Of a stretch of DNA of 64,000 nt, positions 1 through 60,424 are shown piece by piece. The DNA lies in NCBI RefSeq assembly GCF_041146345.1, contig NW_027191409.1:930001-994000 (forward strand), in the 5' to 3' direction. Position 1 is the first letter of the stretch, and each line of letters begins with the position of its first letter. Position numbers and translations under genes: made by a program. Origin of the DNA: Neodothiora populina. Its lineage: Eukaryota. The notes beneath the pieces were generated by a model. The model did no database searches. It saw only the letters and a program-made list of their open reading frames with translations, and was not told the DNA's origin.

Positions 1-966
1 TTATTTCACGTCATTTGAGCTGCAACAGGCCGTTCGGAGCTATCAGATTCGCTATACTCGGTGCTTCGTGGATAATATTCGTGGTTTCGCTACAATTCTC
101 GTAATCTACTATTGTCTTCTTTGAGAACGCGGCCCGTAGCCGTTGCTAGAAGGGTGTCAGCATGGCATATCACATTAAGGTAGCCTTAGGTAAGGTAGGT
201 TGATTGCCCAAGCTAGGCAAGTACAAGGCGCTGCATTTACGCACGATGCTCAATCATGTAAATCTATCAAAGTGAGCCTCAACAGTGTGTTGACATGACT
301 TCATGACCCAAGTGCTCGCCTTTCTCACGGCGAATTCCTGGCGGGGTCCTAGTCTTCTTCGGTGTCCTGACCGGGCTCTTCCTCCTTCCAACCTGTAATG
401 CAGGACCGCTCTCCTGCTGATTCCATCCGCAGCAACTTCCATTACGTGGCGGGGTAATGATATGAGCGCAAATCTCGGATGTCATTCCATGCTCACTGCT
501 AAGTCTCATCGATTCTCAGGTCTTTCCTTGAATAAAAAAGGAAAGATGTCTAGACCTGCAGAAATTCAGCATCTGTCGTCGCATAATGGAGCTTTCCACG
601 AATCAGAACCAGGTCGATCAAGTACAAGGTGAAAGGCCATCACGAGTCTGCAGATTTGGGCGCCAATAGATATCTAACCACTCTCATTGGGCAAAACATC
701 TCGATTTGACCGGTGCTGCATTCCTGCGGGGGGCATGGAGCCTTTGCGAGCTACCTTTCTTAAATGCACTTCGCGTCGTTGCTGTGCCATGTCTCTGTAT
801 TACACGGACATCGTCTTGTCGAGAAATGCCATTCCGATAGTATCAATAATTTTGGTGCGACCTTGGAATGTGTTTCGACTGACACCGATTCGCACTCACT
901 TGCTGTGCATCCATCCGCCTTCGTTAACGGGTGACGACATCACAACCTAGGCGAGAAATTATAAAT

Positions 967-3581
967 ATGACCGCAACACAACAACAGCAGCATGATCATC
1001 CTCCGTCGTTTGGCGGGTTTGTGTGGGTGCAGTCTGCCCAAGACACCCCAAGTCCTCTCGACTCGTGGACTATTGTCTCCTCCAATGGCTCTCCAAAACA
1101 ATTGCTGAGCATCTCGTCTGCCTCTTCAAGCCATTACTTGCGTAACCCATCGACAAGCCCGAGGCACTATACACCAGAACCCGTGCTGCTCGAGCAGCCT
1201 CGTGCATACCCTTCCACAGATTTGACTACAGATTCTAACGATGCCGGACATTCCTCGAGGGTTAGGTCCACAACGACCGCCTCCTTCAATTCCATGTATG
1301 AAGATCCAACTAGCTGTGAGCTAGCTCAAGGCTTTGAAGGACATATGCCAGTTTTAGCCTCGACTCGGCAGTATTGTTGGGACCCGCAATGGACCAATCA
1401 ATTCCAGTCATCTCAGCTTTCAGTAGGTGGACCACCGATGTCCATGTTGCAACAAATTCCATTCACCTCGCCGGGCGACTTTTGGCCCGGCCAATACCTG
1501 GGTCCTCAAGTCTTCTTTCGAGAGACCGCGATAGGCATGAATCCATTCAGTGCGGACTTACACCAGCCATTGGAACAAGACATGTTCACCATGGGGAACG
1601 ACATGGGTATCTTCTCGACACCACCCAACGGATGTAATTATCATGATATATCAAGTGCGGCTACACAATCGGATGGTGGAAGACAAGTACGCAACACAGC
1701 AAGTGAAGCCACCACCGAGCCGCCCCTTGGTTTTGTATATGGCGAAAGTGATCCATGGAATGCACTCCATCTCGCCCAAGATAACATCAATGTTCAAGGA
1801 CATTGTATGTCTAACGATGGAAAGAGACTTCACCGGAACTATGTGACTGCACAGAGGAATCTACATGTTCCTATAGCCCCAAAGCCTGATGGGAGGACCT
1901 CGGTAGCTCCACAACGAAGCGACAATAAGATAACGAAGACGGGTAAGAGGAAAGGGCCTTTACTTCACCCTACACGCGAGAATGCCAAGATCACTAGAGA
2001 CAAGAAGGCGTGTTGGCCTTGTGTCTTTTTGAAGGTAGATTCAAGCCCGAGCAATCACAACGATAGGTGCTGACAGCCACTACAGATGACTGTGAGATCG
2101 GATCGCGCATGCCTATGTTTAAATGGATCTCGACTAACACTATAAAGTGCAAAGGGGACGGATTTTGCGACAAGTGTAGCCTTCGCCGGCATCGTGGCCA
2201 GTCTCATCTTCTGGGCTGTTTGCGAATTAGATTGACAGATATGGTAACGACGATATTGCCTTGTTAGTAGTACTTCAGGATGCTCCGTAAAATTGCTAAT
2301 CGTGTAGCGTCAATGACTAAGATGCATCAACACGACGATCTGATTACCTATGTCCAAGAAAGAGCCATAGGCTGGTTGGACGAGCGTCCAGATATTTGGG
2401 TAGATCTCAATACTGGTATGTCAGTCACTGGCTGGTTATTGTTGTTAAAATTGAACGACTTTCAGGATTCGGGCCGTCATTTCGGTGGTTGTTGCATGAG
2501 TATGAACCAGCTTGGCCGGAGCTCCTCTATCGTGAACAGCAAGAGCTGTGTGCCGATGGACTGACCTGGAGGTTGACAAAAAAACGATCTCCACCCTTAG
2601 GAGTGAAGAAGCTCGATAAAGGTGATGACAAGCGTCTCAAGGACTACATTAGCACACTCGTCAGCTACCACCTTAACGATTTCGAAAAGGCTTGCTTTGA
2701 CGGGGAAGATCCTTTCAAGATCAAAGTGACAGGGTTGTTGTGCACTCTGTACCGCAGGCTGCGGTACGATAGCCAAGTGAGCATTCAGCGGCCCCTCTAT
2801 CGCCGCCGTCTAATGACTTACGATTGAGCAGCATGGTGCACTTCGTGATGCTTTGACATCAATATTTAAGATGTTGGCTGCCACCCTCATCATGGATCAC
2901 ACTATCGATATTGACGACGCTGGTCGTGATCAGACCTTGACTAGATTATCTGGACACAACGATCCGGCTGCGTACTCACAAAGGGTATCCCCATGGATGG
3001 CAAGTATGCAATTGAAGTATTATTTTGCCCGGATTCGTCATGACCACTATAACGATATCCTTGGGCGTCTTCAACAGATTCTACATAATCCAGTAAAGAT
3101 GTATCCGCGGATTTGTGCTCTAATACTGATCCTTGCACTTGGACTAGTCCTTGAAGAATGCCAACAATTGCTTCTCTTCCAGGCCGAGGGTCGGCTTAGC
3201 AGAGGCGAGGAGAAAGATGAATGGGTCGCTCGTAACAAGGCTCGACAACAATGCGCAGAGATCGATGGCGCTTTTAGCCATATCAAGAATATTTTCCATT
3301 GTAGATATGCCACCGGTCGGAATACACAACAAGCTGATATTCGTACATGGCTCAACAGCAGCAAAGATCCATGGGAGAAGGGTTTTTTGCGCAGTTTGAT
3401 AGATCTTTGTGACGAACACAGTCAGTGCAGAGGACCCAAATGTGTGTTTCAAGTCAAGTAATGTACTAATGCAAGCACAGGAGATCATCTCAAGAACCGC
3501 GAGAGCTTGGATCTCGGCTCGGCATCGAACGACAACCACTCATCTCGACTGCTGGCACGCTTTCTGCTGAGTGTCACATGA
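967..3581 (+). CDS. Zn(II)2Cys6 fungal transcription factor, multi-exon
   Basis: Splicing 2035-2085 and 2092-2147 around microexon ATGACT gives CWPCVFLKMTCKGDGFCDKC..C, preceded by a basic region KRKGPL..RENAKITR. Further exons lie in ORFs 2280-2564, 2396-2827 and 2853-3461. The last exon from 3481 ends at TGA 3579-3581. Confidence 0.85.
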
Positions 3582-4944
3582 GCTTCATAGGAATCGTTTG
3601 AACATGCCTGTCATCTGGTTGGAGACGGTGTACGGGGTCCGTCCGCAGGATCACCTTAGCAATTATACAATATATCACAGCACATACTGTCGTTATTAGT
3701 ATAGATGGCCATACAGCGCCTTGCAGCAATACATATTTTTGTTTTCGGTCTATTGTTTCTAGTCTACAATATCAACCTTCATTTCTATTCTTAAACTACC
3801 ACCTACGTGAACAAGTTGATATTTAGCAAACAATCAAACAAGCAAACAATAGGTTTTCATTTGGGAAGGTACCATAACACCAACAAGGATGGGGAATTCA
3901 AGGAATTGCCTCCGAATCACGCAAGGAGGAATGGTCTTACGCATCATCAGTTGCCGAGGAGTGATATCTTATTCTCAATCTTCCCCAAGATACGACCCCT
4001 CGGGCCCATATCCCAATCGGTCGGGTCATGGTTCTTCCCACTTTTGTCCGGGTTAGCCTCTCCCGTCGTCGATGCTCAATTTTCCCGAGAATTGGACGGA
4101 TATACGAGGCCAATGCAGGGAGTATGGCACTGCAAACTGCAGATACCGGCAGCAGCAGCAGTAGTGGTAGCGCCCACATGATACATGTACGCAGGACCTT
4201 GTCTCGGCTCGGGAGATTCTCGTGAGGAGGTAATACCTCTGACCTTGCTTCTTACCCGGATCCAAGTCACTGGAACGATCTGCGAATAGGTTCTCATCGT
4301 TTTATATCACATTCATGTTTCTTTTTGTCCCATATTTGAGCTCAGAGTCGACGTTTGATTATCCTCCATGCCGTCCCATCCACTGTCCAATAATGGGCTG
4401 CTGAGTGCACGATAAGAACGAACGAGAGAAGATCTGATTGGGAGTTGGAAACGTCATTCGATAATGGAAAACCCAGGATGTATATACGCCCCTGTGAAGC
4501 GAACGTGTTGTAGACCAGGCAGACCATTGGCCATGAAAAGAGAGATGGAATCCAGACAGTGACACCTCGCAATGCAATACAACCATTTCCCCTGACCATG
4601 CAATTCCGTCCCTGAGGCTCACAAGTACCAATGTAAAACCTCAGCAACCCATGTGACCCCTTGTTTCCCAATAAATCTCATTCAATGTGTAGCGAGTGCC
4701 AAAAGATCCAGTTTATGTCGAGCGCCGATCCAAGCAAACAAACATAACCAAAAAAAAGGAGTGACTAAAAAGGTAAACCCATAAGATGAACAAGAAAGAC
4801 TCGACAAGTGAGTTGCTGTAGTTCTGCAACAAGGTTTGGTCACCCGAACCCTTATTGCTGTAGAACAGAGTGCAATATTGCTAAAGGTCTGGTCAGCACG
4901 CACGCCAATTGATTCATGACCAGGGTCAAGATGGACATACTGAT

Positions 4945-5181
4945 CTAGATCATCATACTCTCGGTTCCAAATGAAGTGAAGCGGCCGTCGTCTTCAGGGC
5001 GTCCCTTTTTAGAATCGCCCGCGGACTTCTTTGTCTTCGGTCCCTTCTTGCCATCATCCTCGGGTCTTCCAAAGTTGACAAGAGGGACAAAACAAGTACG
5101 GCCAACCTGGTCGTCTTCTGGTCTGGGCTTGGCGGCCAGGAGAGCAGGTGATTGAGACATGGTGAAAGTGTAGGAAACCAT
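4945..5181 (-). CDS. Small 78-aa protein with three (G/P)RPEDD repeats, function unknown
   Basis: Strong fungal start context (caaaATGG), CA-rich leader and TATA-like TATAAGA about 145 nt upstream. The RPEDD motif is repeated three times with synonymous codon differences. Confidence 0.65.
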   Translation of the reverse strand: MVSYTFTMSQSPALLAAKPRPEDDQVGRTCFVPLVNFGRPEDDGKKGPKTKKSAGDSKKGRPEDDGRFTSFGTESMMI

Positions 5182-7471
5182 TTTGACAGGTGTATGTAGT
5201 GAGGGCTAATAGATCAGGTAAAAGCGATAAAAGGTATTGATGTTTCGATTGTGTTGTAAGAGATGCTTGAGAGGCTTTGATGCTGAATATGGATTGAAGA
5301 ACAACGAATACTACCTGATTCTTATAGTTTCCCATGAACCTACAGAAGGATACTTACAATGCAACACAGCCATGGGCTGTGACCATACAGTTGCCTGGTA
5401 AAACTCAGTCATAGCTGTGTATACAGGCAGGGACCATAGGCAGATTGGCTGGATGACTGTGAGGTGGGTCTATGATCTCGGCCAGGCCGTCAGGGTGACA
5501 GCTGTGTGCACAACGAAGGAGTGACAATGTGTCCTCGCTCGCGATGTATGTCGTCATCGCAGACACCGGGGTGTCGAAATAGACTGCGATAGGTTGCATT
5601 ACACCATGTTTCGAGAAGTTAGTGCTCTGCATAGCCTTTGCTGCCTCAAGTTCAAGGCTTTCTCTTCCCATATACACGGCGGTCCTCGAGCATGGAAGGC
5701 CGCCTCGGTCCAATCTATGAAGGATAGAAGCCCGGGCTCGCCGCATAATACCAAAGGAGTTCGTCTGGTACAGTCGCAGTCATTGCTAAGAGTGGGTCTT
5801 GAATCGAGGCAGAGACGTTTTGGAGCTTGGAAGAAAGGTTATTGTGTATGGCCTTGAACAGGATTGGTTCGAAAGCCCGAGTGATTCACTGAGGCAGAAG
5901 GCACATGTGATTGCCTAAACCCATGAAAAGTCGCTTGAGGACTGTGCCATTATTGCCTCGATCCATGATCGACCGTATACCAATTGTGGATGTAGGATAT
6001 GGATGCGCGCACTGACAAGATCAAAAGCGTCGTGTATCAATCTGAGTTTCGATTCTACCTTCGAAGAACTACGCCGCTTGTAGGCGATCCTGGCCGTCCG
6101 GTGAGGTGTAGCAATCTTCAGTGGTCGACGGAGTCAGGCATACCTTCCCCCCACACCCCTATTTGGGGAATTAGTCGCAATTAGCCTCAATTACTAGCCC
6201 ATGCCTTCGTGGCGGAGTTCCCCGAACGAACAGTCAAGGATCGGTCGGAAATGCTTGCTCTTGCAATCGAACCAAGAACCAAGAGCGCCTTCGGGCAAGT
6301 TGCCTAGTCAGACTGACTGATGCCTTCATATTATTCTTGTCAGCTTAAAGTTAAAGGGCATTCCTCACAGAGATGCATCTGGCGAATCATCTGCCTGGTC
6401 GATTAGACATTGACGCGTGCGCACGGAGCAATAAGGCAGACACCGATATCCAAAAGTAGAATATGGGGCTGCTGTTAACTGTGTGTCTGTGTGTGTAGGA
6501 TGCGGATCTGTTAAGGAATGCTTCAAGTACACAAAAAGGTCAGGCTGGCTGAGCATTGTCCATCACAGCTTCGGAGTTGTCTGGGTACCTACTTGAGGCT
6601 TAGTTTTGTGGAAGGAGAAATAAATAGCATCGGGAGTTGAGGTGTGTCCATACAAATAAGTGACTACCTTAGTATCTCTAGTGGGGTAGTGGTAGGGGGT
6701 AAGAGGATCTCTCCACACATGACCTGGTGCTTGCTTCGCGAGTGAGTGGGAGTGTTTGCTTTGCTGCTCTCCGACCGCGCGTCATAGCATTGGTGAGGAG
6801 GGCACGCGTGCCTTCCATCGTCGAATTTTCGACGTGCATCTATCTGTTACCATTAACACACGTTCATTTCCTCTCTATATAACAATCACATCTTGCTGTA
6901 GTCTACGGGTATGAATGGTTACTCGTATGTGCCAGAGCCTTATCTGGTTCGTGTCGATTTTTCATTGTAATCCTCTTCGCGCGTGGGCTTCTCCAACGCT
7001 GACTTGACATGATGTATATCGGAATGAAGACCAATGTCTGCTACCCTGCTCCGACTGCCGTGAACCCTCCGGTAGGTTACACAGGAAACATCGACTCGGG
7101 ACTGCCTTCCGGATGGGTTTCGGGGTTGCCGTACTCTTGTCAGAACAGTAAGTGAAAGCTACTTTACAGTGCATGTCATGTACATGAGCTGGTGTACTGT
7201 AATTATATGACCTCGGGAGTCTATCCTACCGCAACTCCTGCCTATGACGTGCCACACACATTCCTTCCACAACCTTGAGAAGATTGCAAAAACAGATACT
7301 TTCCGAGATGCGGAGCTCGCGACTTGTTATGTCATCTTTGGTTGTAGCGTCAAACATGCATGACTGCGACATGGCCGCTTCACAGCTCTTTAGTAGCATC
7401 TCATTCTTTACGCGCGATTCCACTGCAGAGTCATCATGGCCATCACCATCACCTGAGGAACTGTAGAACCA

Positions 7472-8489
7472 ATGTGGGCTGATCAGCACAAACAAGGCAA
7501 TATGCCAGGACCTGGCCAGACCAAGCACGTTGCGGAGCTGGGCCTGACCGCCGACGATAACGATAATGCGTCCAATCCAGCCTCGAAAGCAGCAGCAGGA
7601 CGCAAGCGATCCAACGACGAAGCCAACAACGATGGAGCCGACGAAGTCGACCTCGACGAGATCGAGATACCCGATGGTGTAGAAATGGACTCATGCGATG
7701 TAGTGCGTCGAAAGATCCGCACCTTCATGGACAACAGCGGCATGAAGATCGGCGAGTTCTGCAACACCATTGGGGTGAGCAACAAATCTTACAATACCTT
7801 CATCCATCAGCACGGCGCCTTCAAGGGCTGCGAGTCAGCGGCTTACCAGAACGCATGGGAGTACTTTGCGAAACGAGAAAAGGCCGGACTTCCCATGCCG
7901 AAGAAGCCCAAGAAGCAGGCCACGGCTGTAAGCAAAGACGGCAAGACGAGCAAAGCCGGTGCGAAAGAAGCGCATCCCGACATCAGCGACGTCCATCTCG
8001 GGTGAAGAAACAGACTCGGTCCCCATCTTCGACTCATGCGCCGAAATCCGCAAGAAGATCAACGCCTACCTCAAAAAACCCAATGTGACGCAAGCCCAGT
8101 TCCTGCGCGATCTTTCCGCGCAGTACCACACAGAGCGAGGTCCCGCGAAGATGCAATCGACCTCTCTGAACCGCTTCCGAGAAGCCAAAGGTCCAGACGG
8201 GGGCAACACGAACTCGGTCTTCTATGCCGCCTGTGTCTTCTTCGAGAAGATCAGGGTCAAGGAGGGTAAGCCCAAGAGCAAGCACAGACAGGAAATGGAG
8301 GCTGCTTGGGGGGACCAGGGCGGTTTCGACACGAAGACTCCTGTGCACAATAAATTGTGAGTTACCTGTTTCGCTGAAGAAATAGATGACGTATTGGTAC
8401 TGACTGTCACCTCTCACAGTATGTGGGTCAAGAAGGGCGAAGAGGGCATCGGTATCAATTCCCTGGGCGAAAGGTACATTTACACCTGA
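7472..8489 (+). CDS. Hypothetical protein with two repeated helical domains (DSCDVVRRKI.. / DSCAEIRKKI..), apparently frameshifted at ~8000
   Basis: ORFs 7472-8005 and 7959-8360 carry homologous halves in different frames. A terminal intron (gtgagt..ctgac..cag, ~8358-8419) leads to TGA 8487-8489. The true start may be ATG 7502. Confidence 0.7.
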
Positions 8490-8921: not shown

Positions 8922-11900
8922 TCAACCCTGGCTCGTGTCCATGGCCTCGGCCTTGACCTCGCCCCTCCTGCTAGCGATAAAGTCCGCAATCTCCTTCATC
9001 TTATCCTCGGCAGGCAAGACGTCCTCGATCTTCAGCGGCATACGGTTGAAAGGATCGGTGGGGTCGGAGAGCAAATGCTGGCGGATAGTGCTGCGATCGA
9101 CGATCTGTTTGCTGTTGGGCAATATGACGGGGTCGGTCATGAGGGAGCCCATGATGGGGTCCAGGAGCTCGTCTGGGATCTCTCCTAGGTCCTCCTCTGC
9201 TTGGGCGTCGATGGCGTGGGCTTTGGCGATGGCTTGGTCCAGCTCGCGGAGTTCGCGGATTTGATCGGGGGACTTGTACCCGAAGCTGGAGATGATTTTG
9301 ATGGCGCGCTCGAAGTTGCCGGGCTTGTAGGAGCGGCCGTCGCGGGCTACGGCGAGGTGGAAGGACTCCTTGTTGCGCAGGTTTAGGTAGACGTCGATGA
9401 GGTCTGAGAGCAGAGCTTCTGGTTGCCACTTGTACTGTTCGCGGTTCTTGACTTTGAGGTTTCCTTGCTTCGGTCCTACTAGGGCGTCGAGGTTGTAGTC
9501 CAGCATGTCGGCTAGGCGTTGGACTACCTCTGGCATTGTGAAAGATCCCGCTAGAGCGTCCGTGAAGAGCTTAAGCATGTCGACTGTTTCGTTTGTGAGT
9601 CCCATGTATGATTTGGTCTTTCCCTCTAGATCAGCAAGCAGTTCTTCCTTTTCTTGTCGCACACTCTCCTCCATGGTTTCTGGTGGCGTACGCTTGAATT
9701 CCTCTTGCAGTTCGTGGATCTTGGCGAGCGAGGAGAACACCTCGTCCAAGACGAACGTGGCGTCATTGAGTAGCAAGTTGACAAACCTGACGAAAAAGTC
9801 GGTGTTTGCACTAGCCTCGTTGGACAGTTTGTCTCTGTACAGAGTATTCGCCCAGATGCATTTCCACACCTGGAAGATCTCGTAGCGGATGTTGAACTTG
9901 TCATAGAATTGTGTGTGCGTGCCGGTGCTCTCGGCCTGAATGTAGAAGTTCATCAAGGCATGCAAGAGATGTTTATGCGCAAACGGGGATCCGTTTAGCA
10001 CGTCTCCCAGTACACCTCTGGAGTTCGAGCCGAAAGCCCAGACTCCATGGAACAAGATTGTCACGAGTCCAGCCTTGAGATAAGGACTCTGGATATAGTG
10101 TGTGTCGCTGAGGAATGTGATGCAGATGGTTATGATCTCCTCGCATTGGGTCGACAAGATGATTTGTGGCATGTAGCGGGTGATGAACTTGAAGTTAGCG
10201 ACAATATCCTCCATAAAGTACTGCGGCAGACACTTGAAGACGTCCGAGGGCTCCTTAGGCAGGGGCAGGCGAAGCTGTTCCTTGGGCAGGTTTTGTCCCG
10301 AAGCCAAACGGAGCAACCAGACAACCACATATCGCATGAACTGCATCGATCGGGCCTGAACTTCTGTGTCCATGAACACACCCATGGTAGCATGGACTAT
10401 GCTATGCGAGGTGTCGAGCGCATCTTTGAGTATCTTCAGTTGAGCTTCGAACCTTGCTGCATATCGGGGATCCTGGGAAATATTAGTGAGTAGAAGCAAA
10501 AATCAATCAGTCAAGTATGTACGAACCGCCATGTATCTAGCACGTTCAGCTTCGAATCTCTCGAGGTCTTTCTGCTGGTACTTCAGCTGCTTTTGTCTTT
10601 GTTCCAGCTGCGTGCTTGCAGCTTCGGTTCCATAGTGATGAGCAGCGACGGTCAAGAAGAAAATCTCTGAGATGAAATTGTTGGCACCTTCGACGTTCTG
10701 AGAATAAAAGGCGTCGGCAGTCTTTTGGTCCGCATTGATCTTGGTTTCGTCGGAAATGCCAACTCTAGGATTTCTCTTGAGGTAGTTGACATCAATACGG
10801 TCAATCTTGGTGAAAGTGGCGTCCATGAAAGGATCGCACAGGCGATCGAGACATGCCTGAGAGAACTGTTAGTCGTGTTGATGTGCATCTCAGGAGTGTG
10901 TCGTCTACTCACAGTGACATTGACCATAAAGCCATCAGAGGATGTAGTCTTTGGATCGACCCTGGTCGCTCGTCGTTTGTGGTTCGCGTTATTGCACAGA
11001 GCGAACCAATCAAGAATCTTCTCTCTGGGATCCTTGCCAGCCTTTACAATGGCATTAGCAATCTCGAAGAGCTCTCCCTGGTGGGTCTGCAACGTCAAGC
11101 GCAGAGCCTTCTGCGAGTTCAAGATGAAGCCTTTGTCCTGTGTCTGGGGGTTGGAAAAGTAGTGTTTCGCCACATCGACCTGTAGAGGAGATATGCGGAA
11201 GAAAGGACCGAGTGTGGTGCTGGTTTCGATGTTCTGGGCGGCAACATCTGAGTGCACGAACCTTGGCGACTGCGTTATAGCGTCTACCAGCTTGGGAAAG
11301 CGAACCAGATTGCGCATGCCTGTGATGTAAGGTCTGTAGTTGTCGTTCATACTCAGATTGGCAAGATCAGCACTAATCTGCTCCGCCGCTCCAACGAGTG
11401 CATCTTTGATGGTATCGTCTTCCTCGAAACGAGAGACAGCCTCGGAGAGGAAGTCGGTGCAGAGACCGTTGTTGCTCTCTGGATCCACCAGTAGATGACG
11501 GGCGAGGGGGTTGACAACGGGGCTGTCCAAGCCGAACATCTCGGGCATTGTGACTGCAAAGATGCAATAGCTCATGCATAGTCGGCGGGCTTCCTTGATA
11601 ACAGCATATTTGGGGTTCTCCGTATCGCCACTCCTGAGGGTGCGGAAAGCTTTTGACACCCGTTTCCAACAGCTCAGCAGATAATCCAAAGGTGTTTCAG
11701 ATGCAGCAAGGCTCGAAGCGGCCTCGGTAAGCGCCTGGTCCAGCAGGGCTGTCTTGAGCAATAGCGGCTCGTTCTGCTCTAATAGGTCTTCTCTTACTCC
11801 ATTTGCAACATGCAAAGTGTTTCCATGTAAGTCGCGGGTGACCTCTGGCTTGAGCGACAAGCGGAAGATCTGGCTCAGCGACCGGTCCTCCCATACCTCC

Positions 11901-12274
11901 AGTGGCTCTGCTGTCGTAGAGCGGGGCTTTGGTTTCACAGCACCATCACTCTCGCGCTTCTGTGGCGTCTGCGAAGAAGCAGCAGAGGTGATGTTTATCC
12001 GGGCTGGTTGCTTGTTCTCCTCCTTGACGCCTAATTGCGAGAAGGGGTTTGTAGCGGCTTTGGAGCCACTTGGACTCTCTTGTGCTGCTGGAGTGCCTGA
12101 CGGGGTGCCTGAGGGAGAGGTCTCTGTACTCGGCTGAGTTGAAGGAATCGGCGATGATGCAGAAGCTCCTCCCAGCTTCGCAAGGCGCTTGTTACGGATC
12201 TGATTGACATTAGTCGTCACGTTAGGTTTTGTCAGAACCGCCACATTCACCTTGTCAGCCTCGGACTCTGCCAT
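8922..12274 (-). CDS. UFD2: Ubiquitin conjugation factor E4 (U-box E3/E4 ligase)
   Basis: N-terminal IRNKRLAKL, core motifs SSDGFMVN, NFISEIFFLT and FYDKFNIRYEI, C-terminal U-box (IPDELLDPIMGSLMTDPVILP..DPFNRMPL). Introns near 12200-12250, ~10856-10911 and ~10472-10526. Confidence 0.95.
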
Positions 12275-13762
12275 GTCGACGAGTACGTATCCACGGTTTT
12301 ATGATACTCAGATTATCTATAACCACACTATGATGGAGTACAAGAATGGTCTTTGGACGCCGATAACACTCTCGAGGTCCAATAGATGCACCGAGATGGA
12401 AACGAACGATGGGAATGAAGGATGGAAATGTCTATATCAACTACGTCGACTTGAGGTGTTCGGAGACAGCAGCAGAGTATCGCCGCCGTGACATAATCTT
12501 CGGCCCGAACGATAAGATAAGCGATGCGAAACAACTCTCGACTTCATTTACCTTACCATTCACTGTCGTTGTATATCTTTCTAGCTTGTTGGTGGTCGTG
12601 TTCATTTTCTCGCCATGGGTAGATATACTGCTGTATTCCACCTTGGTTGCATTCCCAAAGTATAACGATAGGAAGTTGTCTATTCCAGACATGCTGCAAA
12701 AGGCAGTGTGGTATGCATTGACTTGTCATAAACCCTCTTGATCAGAACATCTCCATCATGTCCACAGTACATTCTTCATATGAAGATGTTACAATGTCTT
12801 GGAACTCTCATTAGTGTCTCATGTCTCTCTAGATACGCATGTTTGATAACTCATCTGCGAAGTAGTTGCTTTGTACAACAGACTCGTACAAAGTACTGCT
12901 CTTGGGTTTCCAGGTCGACATCTGCATCTGCGAGCAATATGCCCCGCAATCGAGCATGGGTTCAGAACATGGACCATACCTTACCTTACCTTACCTTTGT
13001 ACTTGAGCACCCACCAAAGGTACCTTTTTGCATTTATTGATACGGTATCTAGCTACCTTGAGGTAAGATGATCAGTCAAATACAGGTACAGTGTGCCGCC
13101 ACGTGCTCATCCGCCGACCTCCATTCCGTCTAGATACATGCTGCATACATGTGAATGCCCACCTATTGCATCTGGGGGCTCTCAGCCGCACGCACCTGCT
13201 ATTGCTCTACTGTCTCCGGGACAATATAAAAGGCTCCTGGCTGATTCCACCTTGTCAAAGATCCTGGCAAGCATCACACCAGGCGATTGGTCTTAGCCCC
13301 CGGATCCCCCGCCATGTCTACCCAAGGTATGCGAGATTGCCCAGTCTCTCGCTGAAGCTCTGCGTAGGATCGGCCTCTTGACTTCAAGCTAGAGGTGTCG
13401 TACAAAGTCAAGTATAGTGCCATCCTGGCGTGTCATGCCACGCCGTCCAATCATCCTCTACTGGGCAAAAGCCCCCTTTGTTGTTTCATCAAGTACGAAA
13501 AAGCACTTCATATATGTACGCCTGATGACGAGCTATCCAATACTATGGATCACAGGACCATGAGGGTAACTCTATGTTGAAACGGCGGCGGCACGAATTT
13601 GGCCATCAATGGTTATGTTCATACGTTAGACCACACGTAATGATGGACGAGACCCTCTGTATTGGGAGCTAGTTCTGCTGATCGTCTTCGCTGTGGTAGC
13701 TCTGCGCCACTCTGGGTCTGTCTTTTGGATGAATCAGGCAAGCCACAGGCTTTCAAAATTAC

Positions 13763-24866: not shown

Positions 24867-27733
24867 TTAAAACATGCCTGGGGCCAGACGAGGGCCGAGG
24901 CTGCTCGAACTGCTGTGCGCGGATGCTTCGAAATCTATGGGTGCTGAGCGGTTGCTATCACCACTCCCCGCGCTAGCGCTCGCGGAACCTGTCAGACTGC
25001 GTACTTGTGGGCCGCTTTTAGGTGGATAAAGTGTGCTCACCCCAACTTGTTGTTCGACGTGTTGCGGTACAACTACGTTACCATTTCCTTGTGGAGGCTG
25101 ACGAGGCGGGGGTGGTCCCCGTGAAGCGCCAGGAGGAGAAGGTCTGCCGTTCATCGGAACTCCATTTGGTGGGTGTCCGTTGGGGGGCCCCATTGGGTGT
25201 CCGTTGGGAGGGCCCATTGGGTGTCCGTTGGGAGGGCCCATTGGGTGTCCGTTGGGAGGGCCCATTGGGCGACCGGGAGGACCAAACGGCCCACGCGGAG
25301 GCCCAAGAGGATTACCAGGAGATTTACTGCCACGACGAGCCATCTGAGGGAAGGGTCCACCAGGGCCTTGTTGAAGTTCGTTGAGACGCTCGGCGGTGAG
25401 AGAATTTGTCCTTGATTCGTGACCCAAATTGGCGCGGTCAACGTTACCGTACCTGTCGGAAGAGTAGCCTAGCAGTGCGTTGTTCATGATGGAATCGTGC
25501 AGACCTGGGACGTCGTCCATGAGGCGAGCACTGACTCGTTGTGGGGCTCTCGGTCGACCGAACATACCCCTGCCACCTCTGCCGTGCGGTCCATTCATCT
25601 CGGGATTGTTACGAAGCTGGTTGGCACTTGGGGCCCTTCTGGTCCTCTTGGAGGTGACGCTCATCATGTCGAAATTGTCTGGATCGATCGCGGGGACGTG
25701 TCTTCCCGATGCCATGGGGTCAAAGTAATCTTCGCCATCCTCATCCTCGTCGTCGAAGCCGCCACCAGCATGGGACGCAGGAGGTGGAGGATGCATGCGC
25801 CGACCCATTCCGGGACCTGGACCCATACCTCCACCCATTCCACCCATCTGTCTCATACCATATTCCTGCTCTCTAAGGGCGAGCTCTCGTTGACGTAGCA
25901 TAAGCTCCCGTTCTCTGAGGGCAAGCTCTCCAGATGAGCCAGGGGTTCTGGAACCTTCGGGATACGGACCGCCGTCGGGTAGAGCGCCGTCCACTCCGTC
26001 GTACAGCATTAAGTGACTGAACTCTTCTAGATCGTTGCCTTCGGTGGATCCGCGGCGCTGTTGAGGTGGAGGTGGCCCGCGAGAGCCGTTGCCGTTCATG
26101 GTTCTCGGTGGGTATCCATTCATTGACGGACCTCTCCTAACTTGTGGTGGAGCACCACCCATCGACGGCGCCCTGCTTCCGGGCCTCATCCCACCTCTTC
26201 CCATGGGTCCAGGCATTGGGCCATTCATCATAGGACCGCGAGGGCCAGGACCCGGTCCAGCTCGGGGTGTACCCGCTCCTGGCTGGGGGGAATGCTGTGG
26301 CCGGCTCTGGTTGACAATGTTGGCGTGGTGAAGAAGCGCGTACAGAGTCTCGATTCGCGGCACAGAGACGCCAGCGTCCTGAGCAAGCTTCATAGGCGAA
26401 CCAAGAAAAGTCTCGATCTCCAGGGGGCGGCGAGCTGTAAAGTCTTGGTACATGGTGCTAGGTGCCGAGGGAGGTTGAATCATTGCCTCCATGGTCTGTT
26501 CACGGAAGTCTTGAGGGAAGGAGCAGCCCTGCGCGGCTGCTAACGTGAGGAGTTCGTCGATGATACCGACGATCAACGAGCGTGCGCCCGTCTTCTCCAG
26601 TAGTTCGGCGTGGTTAGGTGTCTCAAAGAGTACACTTACAGGGTGGAAAGCGATCGGTCTGTGTTGATTTGATCAGCTGGTTGTCGTCAATGATTGTGAA
26701 TGCGATACATACCCGATCATTCTTTCGTATTGCTGTTGTCTAATGTTGGGCGAAACTTTACAGTCGACCTGTCCAGAACTCAACGTCATAGCAAGCGCCT
26801 CTGCCATATCTGATTGTATCGACTCCGGGATGGAAGGGTTCTTGTTTGCAGGGCCAACCCAGACCTCACTCGATCCTTTGTGTTCGAACTCGCTGGCGCC
26901 TGTCTGGCCGAGCTCAGCACCGGAGACCAGTGAAAGTACGACGTTGGTGGGAAACCTCTGTTCTAGGTAGGACTCGACGCCGAGTGAATGTGTGGTGTTG
27001 ACAAGGATGCATGTGTGCTGAGGTGCTACGACCGACTCGATGATCGAGGCAATGTCGTAAACGTCGGGTAGTGCTTTGACGCAAAGCAGTACATAATCAA
27101 AAGGTGCCTTTGCTGTCTTTGCGGCTTCGTCCGGACTTTTCACAACTACATGACATGTGTCAGCGCTTCCTTCGGGCCAGAGTAAGGAGACGTCGTCGCG
27201 TCGAGAGGTATGATGGCGAACACATACCTTGTCTCGGCTTGAACCTTTCATTGCCGAATGTCGTCGACCTGAGCAAAAGGTGTAGGGTCAGCGATGAGCC
27301 ATGAAAGCGATGTCATACCAAGGGCGTATACATACTTGAATGATAGTCCATATTGTGCGACGGCATCGAATCCGTTCTTCCATACTAACGTCACGTCGCA
27401 GGCATTTGTCGCTGACAGCCTCCATGATAGGAAGGCCGAGACTGCGTTCCCACCCACTGATATCACATTGGTCAGCTGCGTGTTATCCATCATGTATATG
27501 CGATACACTTGTGGGCAAACAACGAGAGAGAAAACAACAATAAAACACTTGAAAATTGCCCAGATCGAACTGTCAAGGCCGACGACATGACATGATTGGG
27601 GATGTAATATTTGCTGAGCTAGAAAAGTGGAGCTCCGGGAGCCGCAAAACAGTAGCTCCGTCGCAGAAATGCAGTGTTTGATTATCCTTTACTGACCTGA
27701 TAGAATGCGTAGCCGGGGGGTAGTCGGCGTCAT
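24867..27733 (-). CDS. Ketopantoate reductase (ApbA/PanE)-family protein with long G/P/M/R-rich tail, Svl3/Pam1-like
   Basis: Exon 1 MTPTTPRLRILS splices to VGGNAVSAFLSWRL. Further motifs FDYVLLCVKALPDVYD and STMYQDFTARRPLEIE are followed by a disordered tail. Confidence 0.85.
25171..25269 (-). repeat. 24-bp coding tandem repeat, ~4 copies (PMGPPNGH)
   Basis: gggtgtccgttgggagggcccatt repeated four times, nearly perfect. Confidence 0.9.
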
Positions 27734-42872: not shown

Positions 42873-44669
42873 TCAACCACTACTAGGCCTCGCCGCTCGC
42901 GTGCCGCTGCTGCTCGAGCTGCCCGCACCCCCTTGTACGATCCGTCTACTCAATCTCCCCAGCGCCTCCCCGATCCTGACCTTTTCCCTCCTGACAGAAG
43001 CGACTGCACCACCGCCACCACCACCAGCCCCAAGACCAGCACCAGCACCATTCGCACCCTTCTTTTCAAACGCCGCACTAATCTCCTCGAGAGTCTTCCC
43101 TCTCGTCTCAGGCATCAGGACAGCACAGACCGCGACCGTCAACAAACTAGCCACGCCGAAGAGGAAATAAACGCCAAAGCTCGAATGCGCCAGAAACACG
43201 GGCGTCGTGAGCGCGACGACGAAATTGACGATCCAGTTGGCGCTCTGCGCCAGACTCGTCGCGGGCGCTCGGGTCGCGAGCGGTTGGATCTCGGACGCGT
43301 AGACTTTGATGTGCAGCGCCCAGGTGGCGGAGAAGGCGAGGGCGAAGATGTAGATGAGCACGACGACGGCCCAGCGGCCTGCGCCGTGCGTCGGGTGGAC
43401 GGCGTGTGAAGCGTACAGGGCGCCGATGATGAACATGCATGTTGCGAGCAGCAGGCCGCCGGCCAGCGTGCTGGTTCGTCGTCCCCATGCGTCGGCGTAC
43501 AGGAAGGCTGGGATGGTGATGAGGAGCATGAGGAGGGCGGAAATGCCGGATGCGAGGAAACTGGATGTCGACGAGCTCAGGCCTGCTTGCTGGAATAGGA
43601 GGGGCGCGTAGTATAGCACTCCGTCGATGCCGGAGAGTTGTTGCATGCCCATCATGAAAGCTGCGAGGAGAGTGCGCCTGCGCACGCTGGAGTGGAAGAC
43701 TCGGAGCCAGCTGCTGCTGTTGTTGATGCTGTTGCTGCTGCTGTTGCTGCTGCTTTCGCTAATCTCGCCGTTGGCCGAGGAGCTTGTCGGAGGCTGCATC
43801 GACTTTGATGGTCCTGTTGTTGGGATAGCGTGCATCTGGTTGGAGCGCATTGGTGTCAAGGCCAGACTCTCTGGCTCCATGGCCATGAAGCCTGGTGCTC
43901 CATGTTCCTGCACAATTCCGTGTTTTGAACGATTATGCGAGGATGCATGCCCTTGCTCGAGCGGTTCGTCGAACTCCTTCTCCCGTTCGGCGTCTGCAAC
44001 GCCTAGTCGATCCCAGGCCCTGCTGGCCTCCTCGAATCTACCCTTAGTCTTGAGCCATCGGGGACTCGGTGGCATGATCAGGATCACACTGGTAGCATAG
44101 CAAAATGCCAGGAAACTCTGCAGTGCGAATGGTAGTCGCCACCCCAGACTGGAGTCGCCCGCTCTCACGGTGCCATAGCAAACAAAGTACCCAACGCATA
44201 TGCCTGTTGAGACGAGAAGCTGCTGCACGCTGGCCAAAACACCGCGCTGTCGCGCAGGTGATATCTCAATGACATACACCACAAGTGTGCTGAGGAAGAG
44301 ACCTTCTCCAACACCAGTGATGCATCTTCCAACGAACAACATGGCCAGGTTCTGCGCCGCTGCCTCCAGAGCAGTTCCCAGACAGAAAATGAACCCTCCT
44401 ATGCTGATCGCAAGAACACGTCCCAGCTTGTCTGCAACGCTACCTGCGAAGAACGATGTTACGGAAGCCGGAATCAGGATCGAAGAGACCAATACACCGT
44501 GCACAGTCGAGGTAAAGGAGCCAAAGTACTCGAGGAATTGCGGCATGGTGGTGATCGGACCTATACATCCTGTGTCTAGGCCAAAGAGCAAACCGCCAAA
44601 CGACGACAATATCGAAGCAAGTATGAAGGGATGTGGTTTATGCATGATGAGCGCCTTAAGTGAAGCCAT
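42873..44669 (-). CDS. MFS sugar porter family transporter
   Basis: GGLLFGLDTG, ADKLGR, EISPARQRG, PPSPRWL, QQLSGID and PETRGKTLEEI motifs; intronless ORF. Confidence 0.92.
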   Translation of the reverse strand: MASLKALIMHKPHPFILASILSSFGGLLFGLDTGCIGPITTMPQFLEYFGSFTSTVHGVLVSSILIPASVTSFFAGSVADKLGRVLAISIGGFIFCLGTALEAAAQNLAMLFVGRCITGVGEGLFLSTLVVYVIEISPARQRGVLASVQQLLVSTGICVGYFVCYGTVRAGDSSLGWRLPFALQSFLAFCYATSVILIMPPSPRWLKTKGRFEEASRAWDRLGVADAEREKEFDEPLEQGHASSHNRSKHGIVQEHGAPGFMAMEPESLALTPMRSNQMHAIPTTGPSKSMQPPTSSSANGEISESSSNSSSNSINNSSSWLRVFHSSVRRRTLLAAFMMGMQQLSGIDGVLYYAPLLFQQAGLSSSTSSFLASGISALLMLLITIPAFLYADAWGRRTSTLAGGLLLATCMFIIGALYASHAVHPTHGAGRWAVVVLIYIFALAFSATWALHIKVYASEIQPLATRAPATSLAQSANWIVNFVVALTTPVFLAHSSFGVYFLFGVASLLTVAVCAVLMPETRGKTLEEISAAFEKKGANGAGAGLGAGGGGGGAVASVRREKVRIGEALGRLSRRIVQGGAGSSSSSGTRAARPSSG

Positions 44670-45615
44670 GCTTGCTTCTCCGCTGACAATTGGCCTATCC
44701 GGTTTTCTCGTGCTGTATCATGCAGGTGCCTTCAAGAAGTGAGATGGCGTCCAGGACGCAGAATTGTGGCAAGTAGATGGTCGAGAGCAAGGTAGATACC
44801 AATTCAGTCAGGACTGTCAGAGTCAAGTATCTAGAAATGTGTATACGCTGTGATTCTTCAACCAGATACAAATATATGTAAAATACCTTGTGACTCGAGG
44901 GAAACTAATAAATATTGAAGCAGACACGAAAATAAATGCTCGGTTAACCTACGCCTTTTGATACTTCTTTGCCATGAGAGCAAGTGCAGTCAGACATGGG
45001 GACGACTTGAGTGGTACGCCGACGTTGGCCAAGTAAAAGAAAGCTACCTGGGGCAGGTTTCCCGACCGCTAACGAGATGATTCGATCCTGTGAGAAACAC
45101 GGCTCTCCGTGTTTAAGACTGTCGATCGCAGCTTATATGGTGCAACATGGGGTTGCTTAAGCTACACTAAAGCAGGCACCTCTGAGCGTTCGGAGGTGGT
45201 TACCTACCTACATACCCATGTATCTCCTGTCTAATGCAGGTCGGGAATTCAACACAAAATTGGTCCCAGATCTTGCACTTCTTCAGGAGCCATATAATCA
45301 ACCCCCTGTGCTTCCTTGAATTTTGCAGTTTTCACTTCATAGACTTGCCGAATAACTTTGGTGGCTTTCTTGCAATCATGTGTGCTTTGCTAGCCCCGCT
45401 ATATAGTCACATTGGTGGACTGGCTGCTTTGATTGTATGCACGCCGTGCGTCATCGCACCTACAACCCGTATCGTGTAGACGCCTTATAGAACGGTCTTG
45501 CCCTGCTTTCTATTATGAGCAACTCACCGTCTTCCATACTCGTTCTCTCCCCAAAGGATCGCACGTGTTGCTGTACGCGCTTCATCGGGCATTGCTGCCG
45601 AATACCTACGGCAAG

Positions 45616-47464
45616 ATGGAGTTGGCAAAGGAGTTCTACAACGATAAGGTGAAGCAGGTAAGCCATTATTACGCCAGACGTAGATACCATTTAGATCTCT
45701 CGGATGTAGCGATTGATCATCTTCTAGGTTGTGCTGTTCTCCTCAACAGCGATTGCCCTCTATGGGTGAGTCTAGACGGCCTGAAGTAATATGTTAAAGC
45801 CTAATCTCACCGATTTAGTTACGACCAGGGGATGATGTCGTTGATTAACACAAATCACGACTATCTCAAAACCATGGGGATTGGTGCAGAGGATGCCTTG
45901 GTTGGTGTGATTGTATCCATCTACTATCTGGGAACAGCGGTAGGAGCAGTCATATTCTCCGAAATCGCAGATAGGTATGGCCGAAAGCCTGCTCTGTTTG
46001 GCTGCCTGGCGACATCATCGCTGGGCAATCTTTTCATGTTCATTGCTGGGCTTGGCTACACTCGTGGTGCCCTTGCGGTGATGTTTGCCGGTAGAATCAT
46101 TATGGGTCTTGGTGTTGGAGGTGTTGACAGTGTTGTGCCGATATACTCTTCGGAGCTGAGTGAGGACAAGTCTCGTGGCAAAGCGCTAGCCCAAGAGTTC
46201 CAGATGAGTATGCTACAAGTTACGATTTATCGTGGAGGACAATGAAACTGACCACTCCAGACATATTCGGTCTCAACATGGCTTTTGCCATCAACCTTGG
46301 CCTCACTAGATTGCTAGGCAAAGAAGACCAATGGGCATGGCGCGTTCCAATCATCGTGATGCAGATATACCCAGTCTTACTTCTTGCATTCATCGAGAGA
46401 CTACCGGAGTCCCCTCGTTGGCTGATCTCCCACGAGCGCAAAGATGATGCAATGCATGCGCTTGTGCAGATTTACGGACAGGACGATGCCGAGGAGAAGT
46501 GCGATGAGCTGACCGAGCTCCATGAGCGAGAGTCCTCGGAATCTGTTGGCTACCTGGATATGCTCCTGAAGCCTAGCCATCCGCAATTCCATCCCACAAT
46601 AATAACAGTCATGGGACAGATCAACCAGGCATTGACAGGGTACGATAAGATACTTCTGATGTGTTTGACACTGCTGACAGCTTGCAGGTATGGCGCAGTA
46701 TCTGTCTATGGCCCACAGATCCTTGAGCTGCTCGGGTTCAATACGGTCATTGCAGAATACCTGACCATGGGCAATTACGTCTCTTATCTCATTCTCATGA
46801 CTCTTGCCTGGCTGCTGATCGATGCTGTAGGTCGACGAAGTTTGTTACTCGGTGGCTCAGCTGTGCTGAGCATCTCTTTCTTCCTTCTTACCATCTTCGG
46901 TGGCCTAGCATTTAACGCGGATGAGCTAAAAATTCCAGTCATGGCTCCTGCGGTTCCAGGAGTCGTCACGCTGTTCATTGCAACAGGAGCGTTTGGCATT
47001 GGCTGGCTCGCGACCGTTTGGGTGAGTTTGAACATGATGCTTTTATGCCCATCTATCCTTGTTGTGACTAACAAATCGTCAAGCTCATCCCAACAGAGAT
47101 CTTCCCAACCTCGGCGCGTGCGCAGGGCACCGCGATCAGTGTCATTATATGGGGTCTTGCTAACTTCGCCGTCACACTCCTTACCCCGATTATGTTCAAC
47201 AACTTGGAGTACTGGCTCTTCCTAGTTTTCGGCGTGACAAACCTCTTCGCCGGAACTATGACATATTTCTATCTGCCGGAAAGTGGTAATCGTAGTTTTG
47301 AGGAGAACCAGACCTTTTTCAAAGAAGCCAAGAAGGCCGGCACATGGAGGGTCGGCGCTGTTAGCGATGGAGCTTATAAGAGACTACCCTATCCAGCAGG
47401 AAAGGATGATGACGGCGAGACCGCTCCATTATTGAGTAGGATTAGAGATCAAGCCATGTCCTAA
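45616..47464 (+). CDS. MFS sugar porter family transporter, multi-exon
   Basis: GYDQG, ADRYGRK, PESPRWL, QINQALTG, DAVGRR and PESGNRSFEE motifs. About five short introns. Confidence 0.88.
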
Positions 47465-58362: not shown

Positions 58363-59059
58363 TTTGGAGGAGTGCGGTGGGTGCAGTATTCTGGAGTGGT
58401 GATGGGTGGAATGCGCAGTAGAAAGATGGGTGTTAATGTGTGTATGCAAGTAACTGTTGTATAGAAGAAGTGTGGAAGAAGATCAGCATCGTCATTGGAG
58501 GTTGTGCATTTGTGCAGGGATTCTTTGTGCAGCCCATTCGCTGGCACAATATGGATGCCTGGATGCCTGGATGCCTGAATGGAAGGCTGCCTGGACACAC
58601 CTCTTTGAGGATAATCAATGTTTAATGTTCAAAGGGTTTCCCCGGCTATCTTTACTGCTCTTGTCATGTAAGGTGCTTTTAATGCTCTGCTCCGCTTGTA
58701 CAAGTACAGAAGAACAACGCCGATAGCAATATCTGTACTGTCGCGAGATTGCCAGCATTATCACATACTCTGTGCTCAACTCGCCTCGTACCCGTTCGTG
58801 GTTATCGCCTTCACTAATCAATCAAATCACGATAATTGTGCCAACGTGGACTTTTTTATAATCAAATCTTGGATACTATATACACACACGACAATGTCTG
58901 TTGCAATCTGAGTAATCGCAACAGCGACATCGTCTCACACCGGACTTGCTTGCCATCCAGGACACAAAGTGTTCCCTGCACTGTTGTTGCGCCTTGATCC
59001 ACTGCCTTCCACCGGCATCTATAATTACTTGACCCCCGAACAGGACACCTCATACTATT

Positions 59060-59104
59060 CCTAGACCTAGACCTAGACCTAGACCTAGACCTAGACCTAG
59101 ACCT
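59060..59104. repeat. (CCTAGA)7 hexanucleotide microsatellite
   Basis: Seven perfect units followed by degenerate copies, ~100 bp upstream of the DnaJ ATG. Confidence 0.9.
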
Positions 59105-59203
59105 CGACCTAATAGCACCTGCCCTTTCTCGGATACTGGCGAACCCTGCCGACCTCCAGTGGATATTTTGAAGCGCCACCTCCAACCCTCCTCCCAGAGA
59201 GCC

Positions 59204-60424
59204 ATGTCGGCCAAAACCACAGGCTCATCGGCCAACAACAACAACTCGGACGCAAAGCAGAGACACGAGCACCACGACGGCAGCAGTGGCCGCGCCTACA
59301 CCGTCGAGCAGAAACACGCCGTCATCCGAGTGCGCAAATGCTCGCCCACGGCTTTCTATGACATTCTGGGACTGGAAGAGGTCAAGAAGACGTGTACGGA
59401 CGGCGAGATCAAGAAGGCCTACAGGAAACTAAGTCTGCTCACGCATCCTGATAAGAATGGCTATCAGGGTGCCGACGAGGCTTTCAAGAGTGAGTCGTTT
59501 TTGTTCTGCAGTCAGCACGCGCACAGATACTGATACGCTCTCTCACAGTGGTCGCGCGTGCATTCCAGATCCTCTCGGATGAAGAGAAAAAGGCCAAGTA
59601 CGACCGCTTCGGCGGGGACCCCGAGTCACGCTTCGGCGCAGGAGGTGGCCCATCGTCAGCGGCCGCATCAGGTGCATCACCGTTCAGTGGATTTGCTCGA
59701 TCAGCAGGCGCACAGCGAGGAGGCATGTGGGAGGAAGAGATAAGTCCCGAGGATCTGTTCCGACAATTCTTCGGCGGAGGAGGTGGATTCGGTGGTCCAT
59801 TCGGTATGCCTTTCGTCTCTGCTCCTGTCCCACAAAAACGACTAATCCCCAACCCCAGGCGGCGGTCTCTTCGACACAGGCCCCAACTTCGTCTTCAACA
59901 TGGGCGGCGGCCCAGGAATCCGCGTGCAACAGTTCGGCGGCGGACGACCCAGACGGCGCCAACACAACCCCAACGCCGGGCCCCAGCAGGAGCAATCCCT
60001 AGGCCAAGCCATCCAGTCCCTGCTCCCACTCCTCATCCTCTTCCTGATCCCCCTTCTCTCCTCCCTCCTCAGTAGTCTCGGCGGCGGCCCCGCCGTCCCA
60101 GCCTACAGATTCGAGCACATCAAGCCCTACACGCAACAACACGTCACCGACCGCCTCAAAGTGCCCTACTGGACGAATCCCTCGGAAACAGACGACTACA
60201 GCACCAAGAAATGGAGAGAGCTCGACCGCACCGCCGAGCGCGCATATGTTGGTGATCTCAACATCAAGTGCGAGAGGGAAGTCATGCATCGCGACCGCAT
60301 GGTCCAGGAGGCTCAAGGCTTCTTCTATACCGATAGGGACATGCTCCGGCGCGCTCGCGAGATGGAGCTGGGCAGCTGTAGACGGCTGAGGGAGTTGGGC
60401 GTTACTTCCACCACAAGGTTTTGA
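59204..60424 (+). CDS. ER-membrane J-domain chaperone (Hlj1 / DNAJB12-like)
   Basis: [25 protein letters not shown]-domain, [14 protein letters not shown], a transmembrane segment and a luminal domain with CERE..SC. Two introns. Confidence 0.9.

Follow-up and report, generated by a model that had tools for sequence, protein, structure and literature searches.

A short open reading frame with three dispersed RPEDD motifs in Neodothiora populina: a possible unannotated small gene

Can a five-residue peptide that recurs three times within one short reading frame, each time written with different codons, reveal a gene that annotation has missed? This question is raised by a 78-codon open reading frame (ORF) on the minus strand of a 64-kb stretch of the genome of Neodothiora populina (assembly GCF_041146345.1, contig NW_027191409.1, positions 930,001 to 994,000; hereafter the window, numbered from its first letter). 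An earlier note on this DNA had reported the motifs PRPEDDQ, GRPEDDG and GRPEDDG with synonymous codon differences, and both the motifs and the codons are as it listed them.

Our favoured reading, held tentatively, is that the RPEDD ORF is a real, unannotated and lineage-restricted gene for a small disordered protein with RPEDD motifs at the peptide level. When all coding readings are taken together, the balance tips somewhat towards a real, peptide-constrained coding sequence, because a triple of this kind is expected in about 1e-7 of random ORFs, the differences between the copies are synonymous only, and the codon usage is coding-like in this frame only.

The RPEDD triple and its codons

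The ORF and its three motif copies are located as follows.

5181-4945, minus strand: RPEDD ORF, ATG to TAG, 78 codons, stop TAG at 4947-4945
5110..5124, minus strand: RPEDD copy 1, AGA CCA GAA GAC GAC, in the context K-P-RPEDD-Q
5053..5067, minus strand: RPEDD copy 2, AGA CCC GAG GAT GAT, in the context F-G-RPEDD-G
4987..5001, minus strand: RPEDD copy 3, CGC CCT GAA GAC GAC, in the context K-G-RPEDD-G

The 78-aa translation of the minus-strand ORF at 4945..5181, taken from the ORF listing of the window, is MVSYTFTMSQSPALLAAKPRPEDDQVGRTCFVPLVNFGRPEDDGKKGPKTKKSAGDSKKGRPEDDGRFTSFGTESMMI. The RPEDD peptide was back-translated into the degenerate DNA pattern MGNCCNGARGAYGAY, with which the whole 64-kb window was scanned. 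Three matches were found, all of them in frame inside the 78-aa ORF; shuffled sequences were expected to give 0.04 matches, and none of the 100 shuffles reached three. The codon strings of the three copies (AGACCAGAAGACGAC, AGACCCGAGGATGAT and CGCCCTGAAGACGAC) differ pairwise at 4, 3 and 6 of 15 bases, always synonymously, and the minimum of 7 nucleotide changes among them is synonymous in 7 out of 7 cases in the frame of the ORF. When random changes were simulated (4 or 3 changes), RPEDD was left intact with p = 5.4e-4 and 4.4e-3, respectively, which corresponds to a joint value of 2.3e-6.

The frequency of such triples was estimated from 400 windows generated with a second-order Markov model of this window, in which stop-to-stop ORFs of at least 60 aa were collected. 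Not one of the 217,742 random ORFs contained any 5-mer three times; triples of a 4-mer were present in 8 ORFs and triples of a 3-mer in 2,784, and extrapolation from these two counts gave the rate of about 1e-7 per random ORF. The RPEDD triple is unlikely to have arisen by chance.

In the real window, nine ORFs contain a 5-mer three times. The other eight are frames of two DNA tandem repeats, the copies of which are near-identical in DNA, and RPEDD is the only dispersed 5-mer triple in the window. At the RPEDD ORF, Tandem Repeats Finder detected no tandem DNA repeat, and the only DNA-level echo, a 12-nt pair at 92% identity, is the motif itself. The spacers between the motifs had been described as unrelated to each other, and this description holds: in local alignments they were no more similar than shuffled controls (p 0.33-0.87 for DNA and 0.16-0.88 for protein). 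No paralogue of the 78-aa ORF was found within the window, where the top non-self tblastn match had an E-value of 0.94. With no tandem repeat, no spacer similarity and no paralogue in the window, an origin of the triple as a DNA repeat was rejected. Since the differences are synonymous only, tandem repeats are absent and the spacers are dissimilar, the data support a constraint on the peptide rather than a DNA repeat, provided that the frame is read at all. The earlier note had drawn the same inference, which is borne out by the synonymous-only changes, by the absence of comparable triples among the random ORFs and by the frame-specific codon usage.

Codon usage, relatives and annotation

Codon usage was scored with a table of codon log-odds trained on 14 open frames of at least 300 codons from the window, which are unverified as genes and two of which overlap. 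On this scale the RPEDD ORF reached 0.176 per codon, compared with a mean of 0.132 (standard deviation (sd) 0.09, n = 513) for in-frame 77-codon windows of the long ORFs and of -0.035 (sd 0.079) for 381 short ORFs of 60-110 aa, 0.8% of which scored as high. The five other frames of the same DNA had log-odds between -0.16 and -0.43, and the stop-to-stop version of the ORF ranked 6th out of 381 by codon score. Based on synonymous codon choice alone, the ORF scored 0.045 (rank 22 out of 381), whereby coding windows averaged 0.044 and the short ORFs -0.042 (sd 0.053). This coding-like codon usage, restricted to the one frame, moderately supports coding.

A gene lying in the same window bears on the annotation status of the ORF.

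8925-12298, minus strand: UFD2, identified by Pfam scan and protein match

The UFD2 exon at 8925-10502 matched the N. populina hypothetical protein AAFC00_003647 with 100% identity over 98% of the query, and the next matches had identities of 78% (a Logan contig) and 67-69% (Aureobasidium); the match assigns the window to this member of the Dothideales. Because the RPEDD ORF is absent from the collection that contains this annotated UFD2 protein, it was apparently left uncalled by the annotators of the genome.

Several results weigh against a real gene. Part of the codon score is accounted for by the D/E/K/G-rich composition of the ORF, the score depends on the training set described above, and some antisense frames of real genes score equally, e.g., the plus-strand frame at 9189-9383, with 0.158. 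A phmmer search of 1,835,955,588 representative proteins gave no match at E<=1e-3. A word-index search returned a single candidate among proteins of 42-137 aa, which did not score, and 56 candidates among proteins of 138-2000 aa, none of them at E<=10; searches of PDB (E<=10) and of the ESM Atlas with the 78-aa ORF were also empty. The protein collection with the N. populina UFD2 has no protein that includes this ORF. The ESM Atlas recognition value of the ORF was 1238, and 91 out of 100 known-family proteins reach 2300, although this value does not tell whether a gene is real. Finally, AlphaFold2, run on the single sequence, gave a model of the 78-aa product with no secondary structure (predicted local distance difference test (pLDDT) 60.4, predicted template modelling score 0.14); such a low-confidence model is consistent with intrinsic disorder, but a non-protein sequence would also yield low pLDDT.

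The homologue searches covered predicted proteins and metagenome contigs only. The earlier note had held that its proposal would fail if no homologue retained RPEDD, and as far as the protein databases searched are concerned, none did. A fast-evolving disordered protein of 78 aa, with few close relatives sequenced, could escape detection. In the metagenome contigs, 154 pattern matches led to one tblastn-confirmed locus (L001, 1-1401, plus strand), which was rejected as a relative, the match being a low-complexity coincidence through a PPEDDGKKGG linker. Its open frame of 466 aa covers part of an RHS-repeat protein from a bacterium, the C-terminal region of which is of unknown type. Among the full-text literature matches to 'RPEDD', none of the titles listed concerns such a motif, and the titles listed for 'Neodothiora populina' show no genome or transcriptome paper.

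It is quite possible, on this evidence, that the ORF is non-functional, and this is the main rival of the favoured reading. The frame would then have arisen by chance or be a proto-gene of very recent origin, in intergenic DNA or in DNA of a non-coding transcript, and the triple would be a rare coincidence in purine-rich sequence, devoid of biological function. Such a reading accords with the absence of homologues at all lengths searched, with the absence of the ORF from the collection that holds the annotated UFD2, and with the lack of a predicted fold and the low language-model recognition. ORFs of 78 codons are common, the window having 515 stop-to-stop ORFs of at least 60 aa, and some antisense frames of real genes, such as the one at 9189-9383, have codon scores as high. 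Moreover, GAAGAC hexamers stand at four sites within about 140 nt (4980-5125, minus strand), in all three phases, which points to a local purine-rich bias of the coding strand. What this reading leaves to coincidence is a triple expected in about 1e-7 of random ORFs, whose differences are all synonymous with a joint p of 2.3e-6; in both other sense frames the three copies read as different peptides, and the codon usage lies in the top 0.8-1.6% of short ORFs in this frame only.

Two of the four GAAGAC hexamers fall within E-D, one falls within G-R-P and one within P-K-T.

Gene structure and predicted product

Around the coding frame, the following elements were distinguished.

5158..5160, minus strand: second in-frame ATG (caccATGt), 21 nt downstream of the first, a possible alternative start of a 71-aa product
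5182..5332, minus strand: putative leader and core promoter of the RPEDD ORF, with consensus-level features only
4881..4940, minus strand: intron-like element of 60 nt (GTATGT ... GCTGAC ... TTTAG), starting 4 nt past the ORF stop
4958-4953, minus strand: weaker alternative donor GTATGA, which would swap the last 6 residues for TILHSVLQQ

The start of the 78-aa ORF reads caaaATGg, with A at -3 and G at +4, and a TATAAG is present upstream at 5326-5321, so that the strong start context and TATA-like box noted earlier are both found. The 151 nt ahead of the start (5332 to 5182) contain no ATG, the leader is pyrimidine-rich immediately 5' of the start, and an in-frame stop TAG lies at 5208-5206, 24 nt upstream of the ATG. 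The upstream DNA, described earlier as about 2 kb without genes, indeed extends over 2.3 kb (5182-7456) in which Pfam recognised no ORF and no further ORF scored highly as coding.

The intron-like element has the canonical fungal signals GTATGT at 4940, GCTGAC at 4897 and a TTTAG ending at 4881, and is the only intron-pattern match on either strand within 3000-8000. It may nevertheless be due to chance, because the window as a whole has 14 such matches, compared with 9.5 +/- 3.5 in random sequence. If real, the element would be an intron of the 3' untranslated region, or would be used with the weaker donor GTATGA. No Rfam match was obtained within 3400-7500 at E<=1.

A canonical-looking 60-nt intron located 4 nt past the stop, with a second donor within the last codons, could indicate that the ORF has been mis-modelled and belongs to a gene that is larger or spliced in another way, ending for instance in ...FGTE-TILHSVLQQ or continuing into further exons. 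We consider this very unlikely. The stronger donor lies past the stop, and just one frame stays open across it, which lacks an ATG and has stop codons upstream; the alternative donor changes the last residues only. A 5' extension is disfavoured by the in-frame stop 24 nt upstream and by the lack of an upstream exon with an ATG. The downstream minus-strand ORFs have no domain match and none is among the 15 top coding scores, and a chance match to the intron pattern is expected in about every 13 kb of strand.

A longer ORF running through the element or from an upstream exon was rejected, as no combination of frames gives a longer ATG-initiated product, the 9-residue swap at the C-terminus excepted. 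The length of the element is divisible by three, so that a start-less 103-codon frame (4685-4993) passes straight through it.

The predicted 78-aa product has a mass of 8.5 kDa, an isoelectric point of 8.85 and a grand average of hydropathy (GRAVY) of -0.82, with 10.3% Gly, 13 basic and 11 acidic residues. It is laid out as an 18-residue head followed by units of 19, 22 and 19 residues, each of which begins with [P/G]-RPEDD-[Q/G], and the linkers between the motifs are of about 14-17 residues. The middle unit includes a Lys-rich spacer.

5005..5052, minus strand: Lys-rich spacer GKKGPKTKKSAGDSKK of the ORF

Judged by eye, this spacer resembles a nuclear-localisation signal. The N-terminus reads MVSYTFTM, and two hydrophobic patches were observed, one at the N-terminus and the other being CFVPLVNF. 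Residues 1-21 contain no hydrophobic core of the signal-peptide type (9-residue Kyte-Doolittle mean <=0.7), the 78-aa sequence has no KR or RR dipeptide, and no CAAX box is present, the C-terminus being SMMI and the only Cys being residue 30. The earlier statement that the peptide lacks a signal peptide, KR sites and a CAAX box is therefore confirmed by the Kyte-Doolittle profile and by inspection of the sequence. No Pfam domain was detected in the ORF at E<=10.

Composition and predicted disorder also bear on the possibility of a hydrophilin-like or late embryogenesis abundant (LEA)-like stress protein, a disordered chain acting as bulk protectant or condensate component, in which the repeats would be structural and not docking elements. 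Hydrophilins are recognised by a Gly content above 6% together with high mean hydrophilicity, and repeated short motifs occur in small hydrophilic fungal stress proteins. The Gly content, the negative GRAVY, the 13 basic and 11 acidic residues and the lack of predicted structure are in keeping with such a protein. However, no Pfam match to LEA, hydrophilin, con-6, con-10 or KGG was obtained at E<=10, the two hydrophobic patches are at odds with it, and the hydrophilicity appears to be below that of the hydrophilin definition. This reading is unlikely.

Under the favoured reading, an orphan gene of this Dothideales fungus would encode an intrinsically disordered 8.5-kDa product, in which three acidic RPEDD motifs would be maintained at the peptide level. 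Most likely, the RPEDD copies would act as repeated short linear motifs for the multivalent, low-affinity binding of a single partner, for which we propose a protein with a basic or Pro-recognising pocket, and the Lys-rich spacer at the centre may serve in nuclear targeting or in contacting nucleic acids. That the frame is transcribed and translated, that the motifs bind a partner and where the product resides are inferred.

Known systems and genomic neighbourhood

Taxonomically restricted (orphan or de novo) small ORF genes, which encode disordered proteins, are a recognised category in fungi and not a curated family. The RPEDD ORF resembles them in being short, homologue-free and predicted to be disordered, with an intronless coding part, in lying in a long intergenic gap and in having apparently been missed by annotation; what sets it apart from them in general is a 5-residue motif that recurs exactly, three times, in different codons. 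It also resembles multivalent short-linear-motif adaptors or inhibitors, with a chain predicted to be disordered and identical short motifs joined by unrelated linkers of about 14-17 residues. To our knowledge, no known motif class matches G-RPEDD-G.

If real, the ORF would be an example of a gene missed by annotation and recognisable only by an internal signature of peptide constraint, and would make RPEDD a new candidate among short linear motifs, in a fungus of aspen cankers for which almost no functional data exist. Dispersed identical peptides with synonymous-only differences could reveal small genes for which neither homology nor RNA data are at hand. If the ORF is not expressed, the case would be one for caution, as a one-in-ten-million pattern occasionally surfaces in a very large scan.

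Small proteins with a repeated short peptide element are also found among the precursors of Kex2-processed repeat peptides, dikaritins, epichloecyclins and alpha-factor. Such precursors are routed to the Golgi, Kex2 cleaves them at dibasic sites, and those of dikaritins share a cluster with DUF3328/UstYa enzymes (PMC9233826; PMC7329392); DUF3328 enzymes are also given as a feature of epichloecyclins (PMC9233826). Unlike dikaritin and other Kex2-processed precursors, which have dibasic sites on the flanks of each repeat, the RPEDD ORF has neither a signal-peptide-like N-terminus nor KR or RR, and no gene for the DUF3328 cyclisation enzymes UstYa/UstYb was found in the 64 kb; and unlike lipopeptide pheromones of the a-factor type, it ends in SMMI and has no CAAX box. 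With the signal peptide, KR/RR and CAAX all absent, the misfit to alpha-factor, a-factor and Kex2-processed dikaritin precursors asserted in the earlier note stands.

Like the MSDIN precursors of amatoxins and phallotoxins, the predicted product would be cytosolic and small and has no signal peptide. MSDIN precursors are peptides of about 35 aa with a single core, an MSDIN leader and a dedicated prolyl oligopeptidase (PMC9233826). They come from basidiomycetes, the leader ends in Pro, their processing relies on conserved Pro residues, and conserved flanks surround a variable core. The RPEDD ORF has MVSYTFTM in place of an MSDIN leader, and peptidase S9 was absent from the window scans. Borosins have their core fused to an autocatalytic N-methyltransferase (PMC9233826), unlike the RPEDD ORF, which has no Pfam domain, and no methyltransferase was found in the window.

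These comparisons bear on the proposal that the product is a cytosolic multi-core precursor of a peptide made by ribosomes and modified after translation (RiPP), in which RPEDD would be the core or a recognition sequence flanking variable cores. The alternation of a short conserved element with variable segments loosely recalls multi-core precursors, and every motif contains a Pro, behind which the prolyl oligopeptidase of the amatoxin pathway cleaves (PMC9233826). Pfam scans of the window, which comprised about 235 query frames (49, 97 and 89) including two short exon pieces of the gene at 928-3461, turned up neither tailoring nor processing enzymes within the 64 kb, whose left end lies about 5 kb from the RPEDD ORF: no DUF3328/UstYa, prolyl oligopeptidase (peptidase S9), methyltransferase, tyrosinase or P450 was detected, and the families are housekeeping ones only. 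Moreover, the ORF has no signal peptide, KR/RR, MSDIN leader or fused methyltransferase, its spacers are very different in length and chemistry, and related precursors are absent from all databases searched. The RiPP reading falls short on every feature by which the review PMC9233826 describes the four recognised classes of fungi; it is most improbable, and persists only as a speculative new class. Neither of the two functions proposed in the earlier note is supported: for the RiPP-like one, neither a tailoring enzyme nor a precursor family was found, and multivalent short linear motifs are a possibility.

There is a slim chance that the ORF is the first member of a class of cytosolic peptides not yet described in fungi, either as a leaderless multi-unit precursor or through a new docking motif, G-RPEDD-G. 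In the precursor version, cutting at or around the RPEDD elements would release different spacer peptides; in the docking version, a conserved cellular machine would recognise G-RPEDD-G three-fold, in a tree-pathogenic relative of the black yeasts.

The RPEDD ORF lies in the middle of a 4-kb stretch (3462-7456) otherwise devoid of domain matches, between two plus-strand genes.

928-3461, plus strand: convergent neighbour, multi-exon, putative transcription factor based on its Cys pattern only
7457-8357, plus strand: DUF7726 gene, two DUF7726 domains (E 2e-28 and 3.5e-16) in consecutive frames

The first of these neighbours had been described as a convergent Zn2Cys6 gene. Its convergent orientation is correct, and it has a CxxC...CxxxxxCxxC...C pattern at 2007-2220, which is broken by an intron; introns with clear signals at about 2027-2147 (GTAGAT / GTGAGA ... 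ACTAAC ... AAAG) split this Cys-rich motif. The Zn2Cys6 identity was not confirmed: no Pfam match to this family was found on the unspliced ORFs, large exons included, or on the two exon pieces. The functional link to this gene suggested in the earlier note comes from adjacency alone. The DUF7726 gene is divergent from the RPEDD ORF across 2.3 kb.

Elsewhere in the window, Pfam identified the housekeeping families ketopantoate reductase-like, tyrosine phosphatase, DEAD helicase, Rpr2, histidine phosphatase and ALG11, as well as several sugar transporters, PIP5K, cyclin, Aim19 and DnaJ/DUF1977. Three sugar-transporter (Sugar_tr/MFS) genes were found within 20 kb, at 42876-44717 (minus strand), 45805-47461 (plus strand, at least 3 exons) and 61019-62943 (minus strand).

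The two tandem repeats that give rise to the other 5-mer triples of the window both fall within ORFs. A 24-nt repeat of about 4 near-identical copies, located at about 25100-25400 within the minus-strand ORF 24870-26672, encodes PMGPPNG... octapeptide repeats in the C-terminal part of the ketopantoate-reductase-like gene (ApbA_C / ApbA) and gives repeated peptides in all six frames. The second is a CCTAGA hexanucleotide microsatellite at about 59050-59130 (plus strand), which produces a (PR)n run on the N-terminal side of ORF 59033-59530; this ORF also has a DnaJ domain, and DUF1977 follows at 59846-60421.

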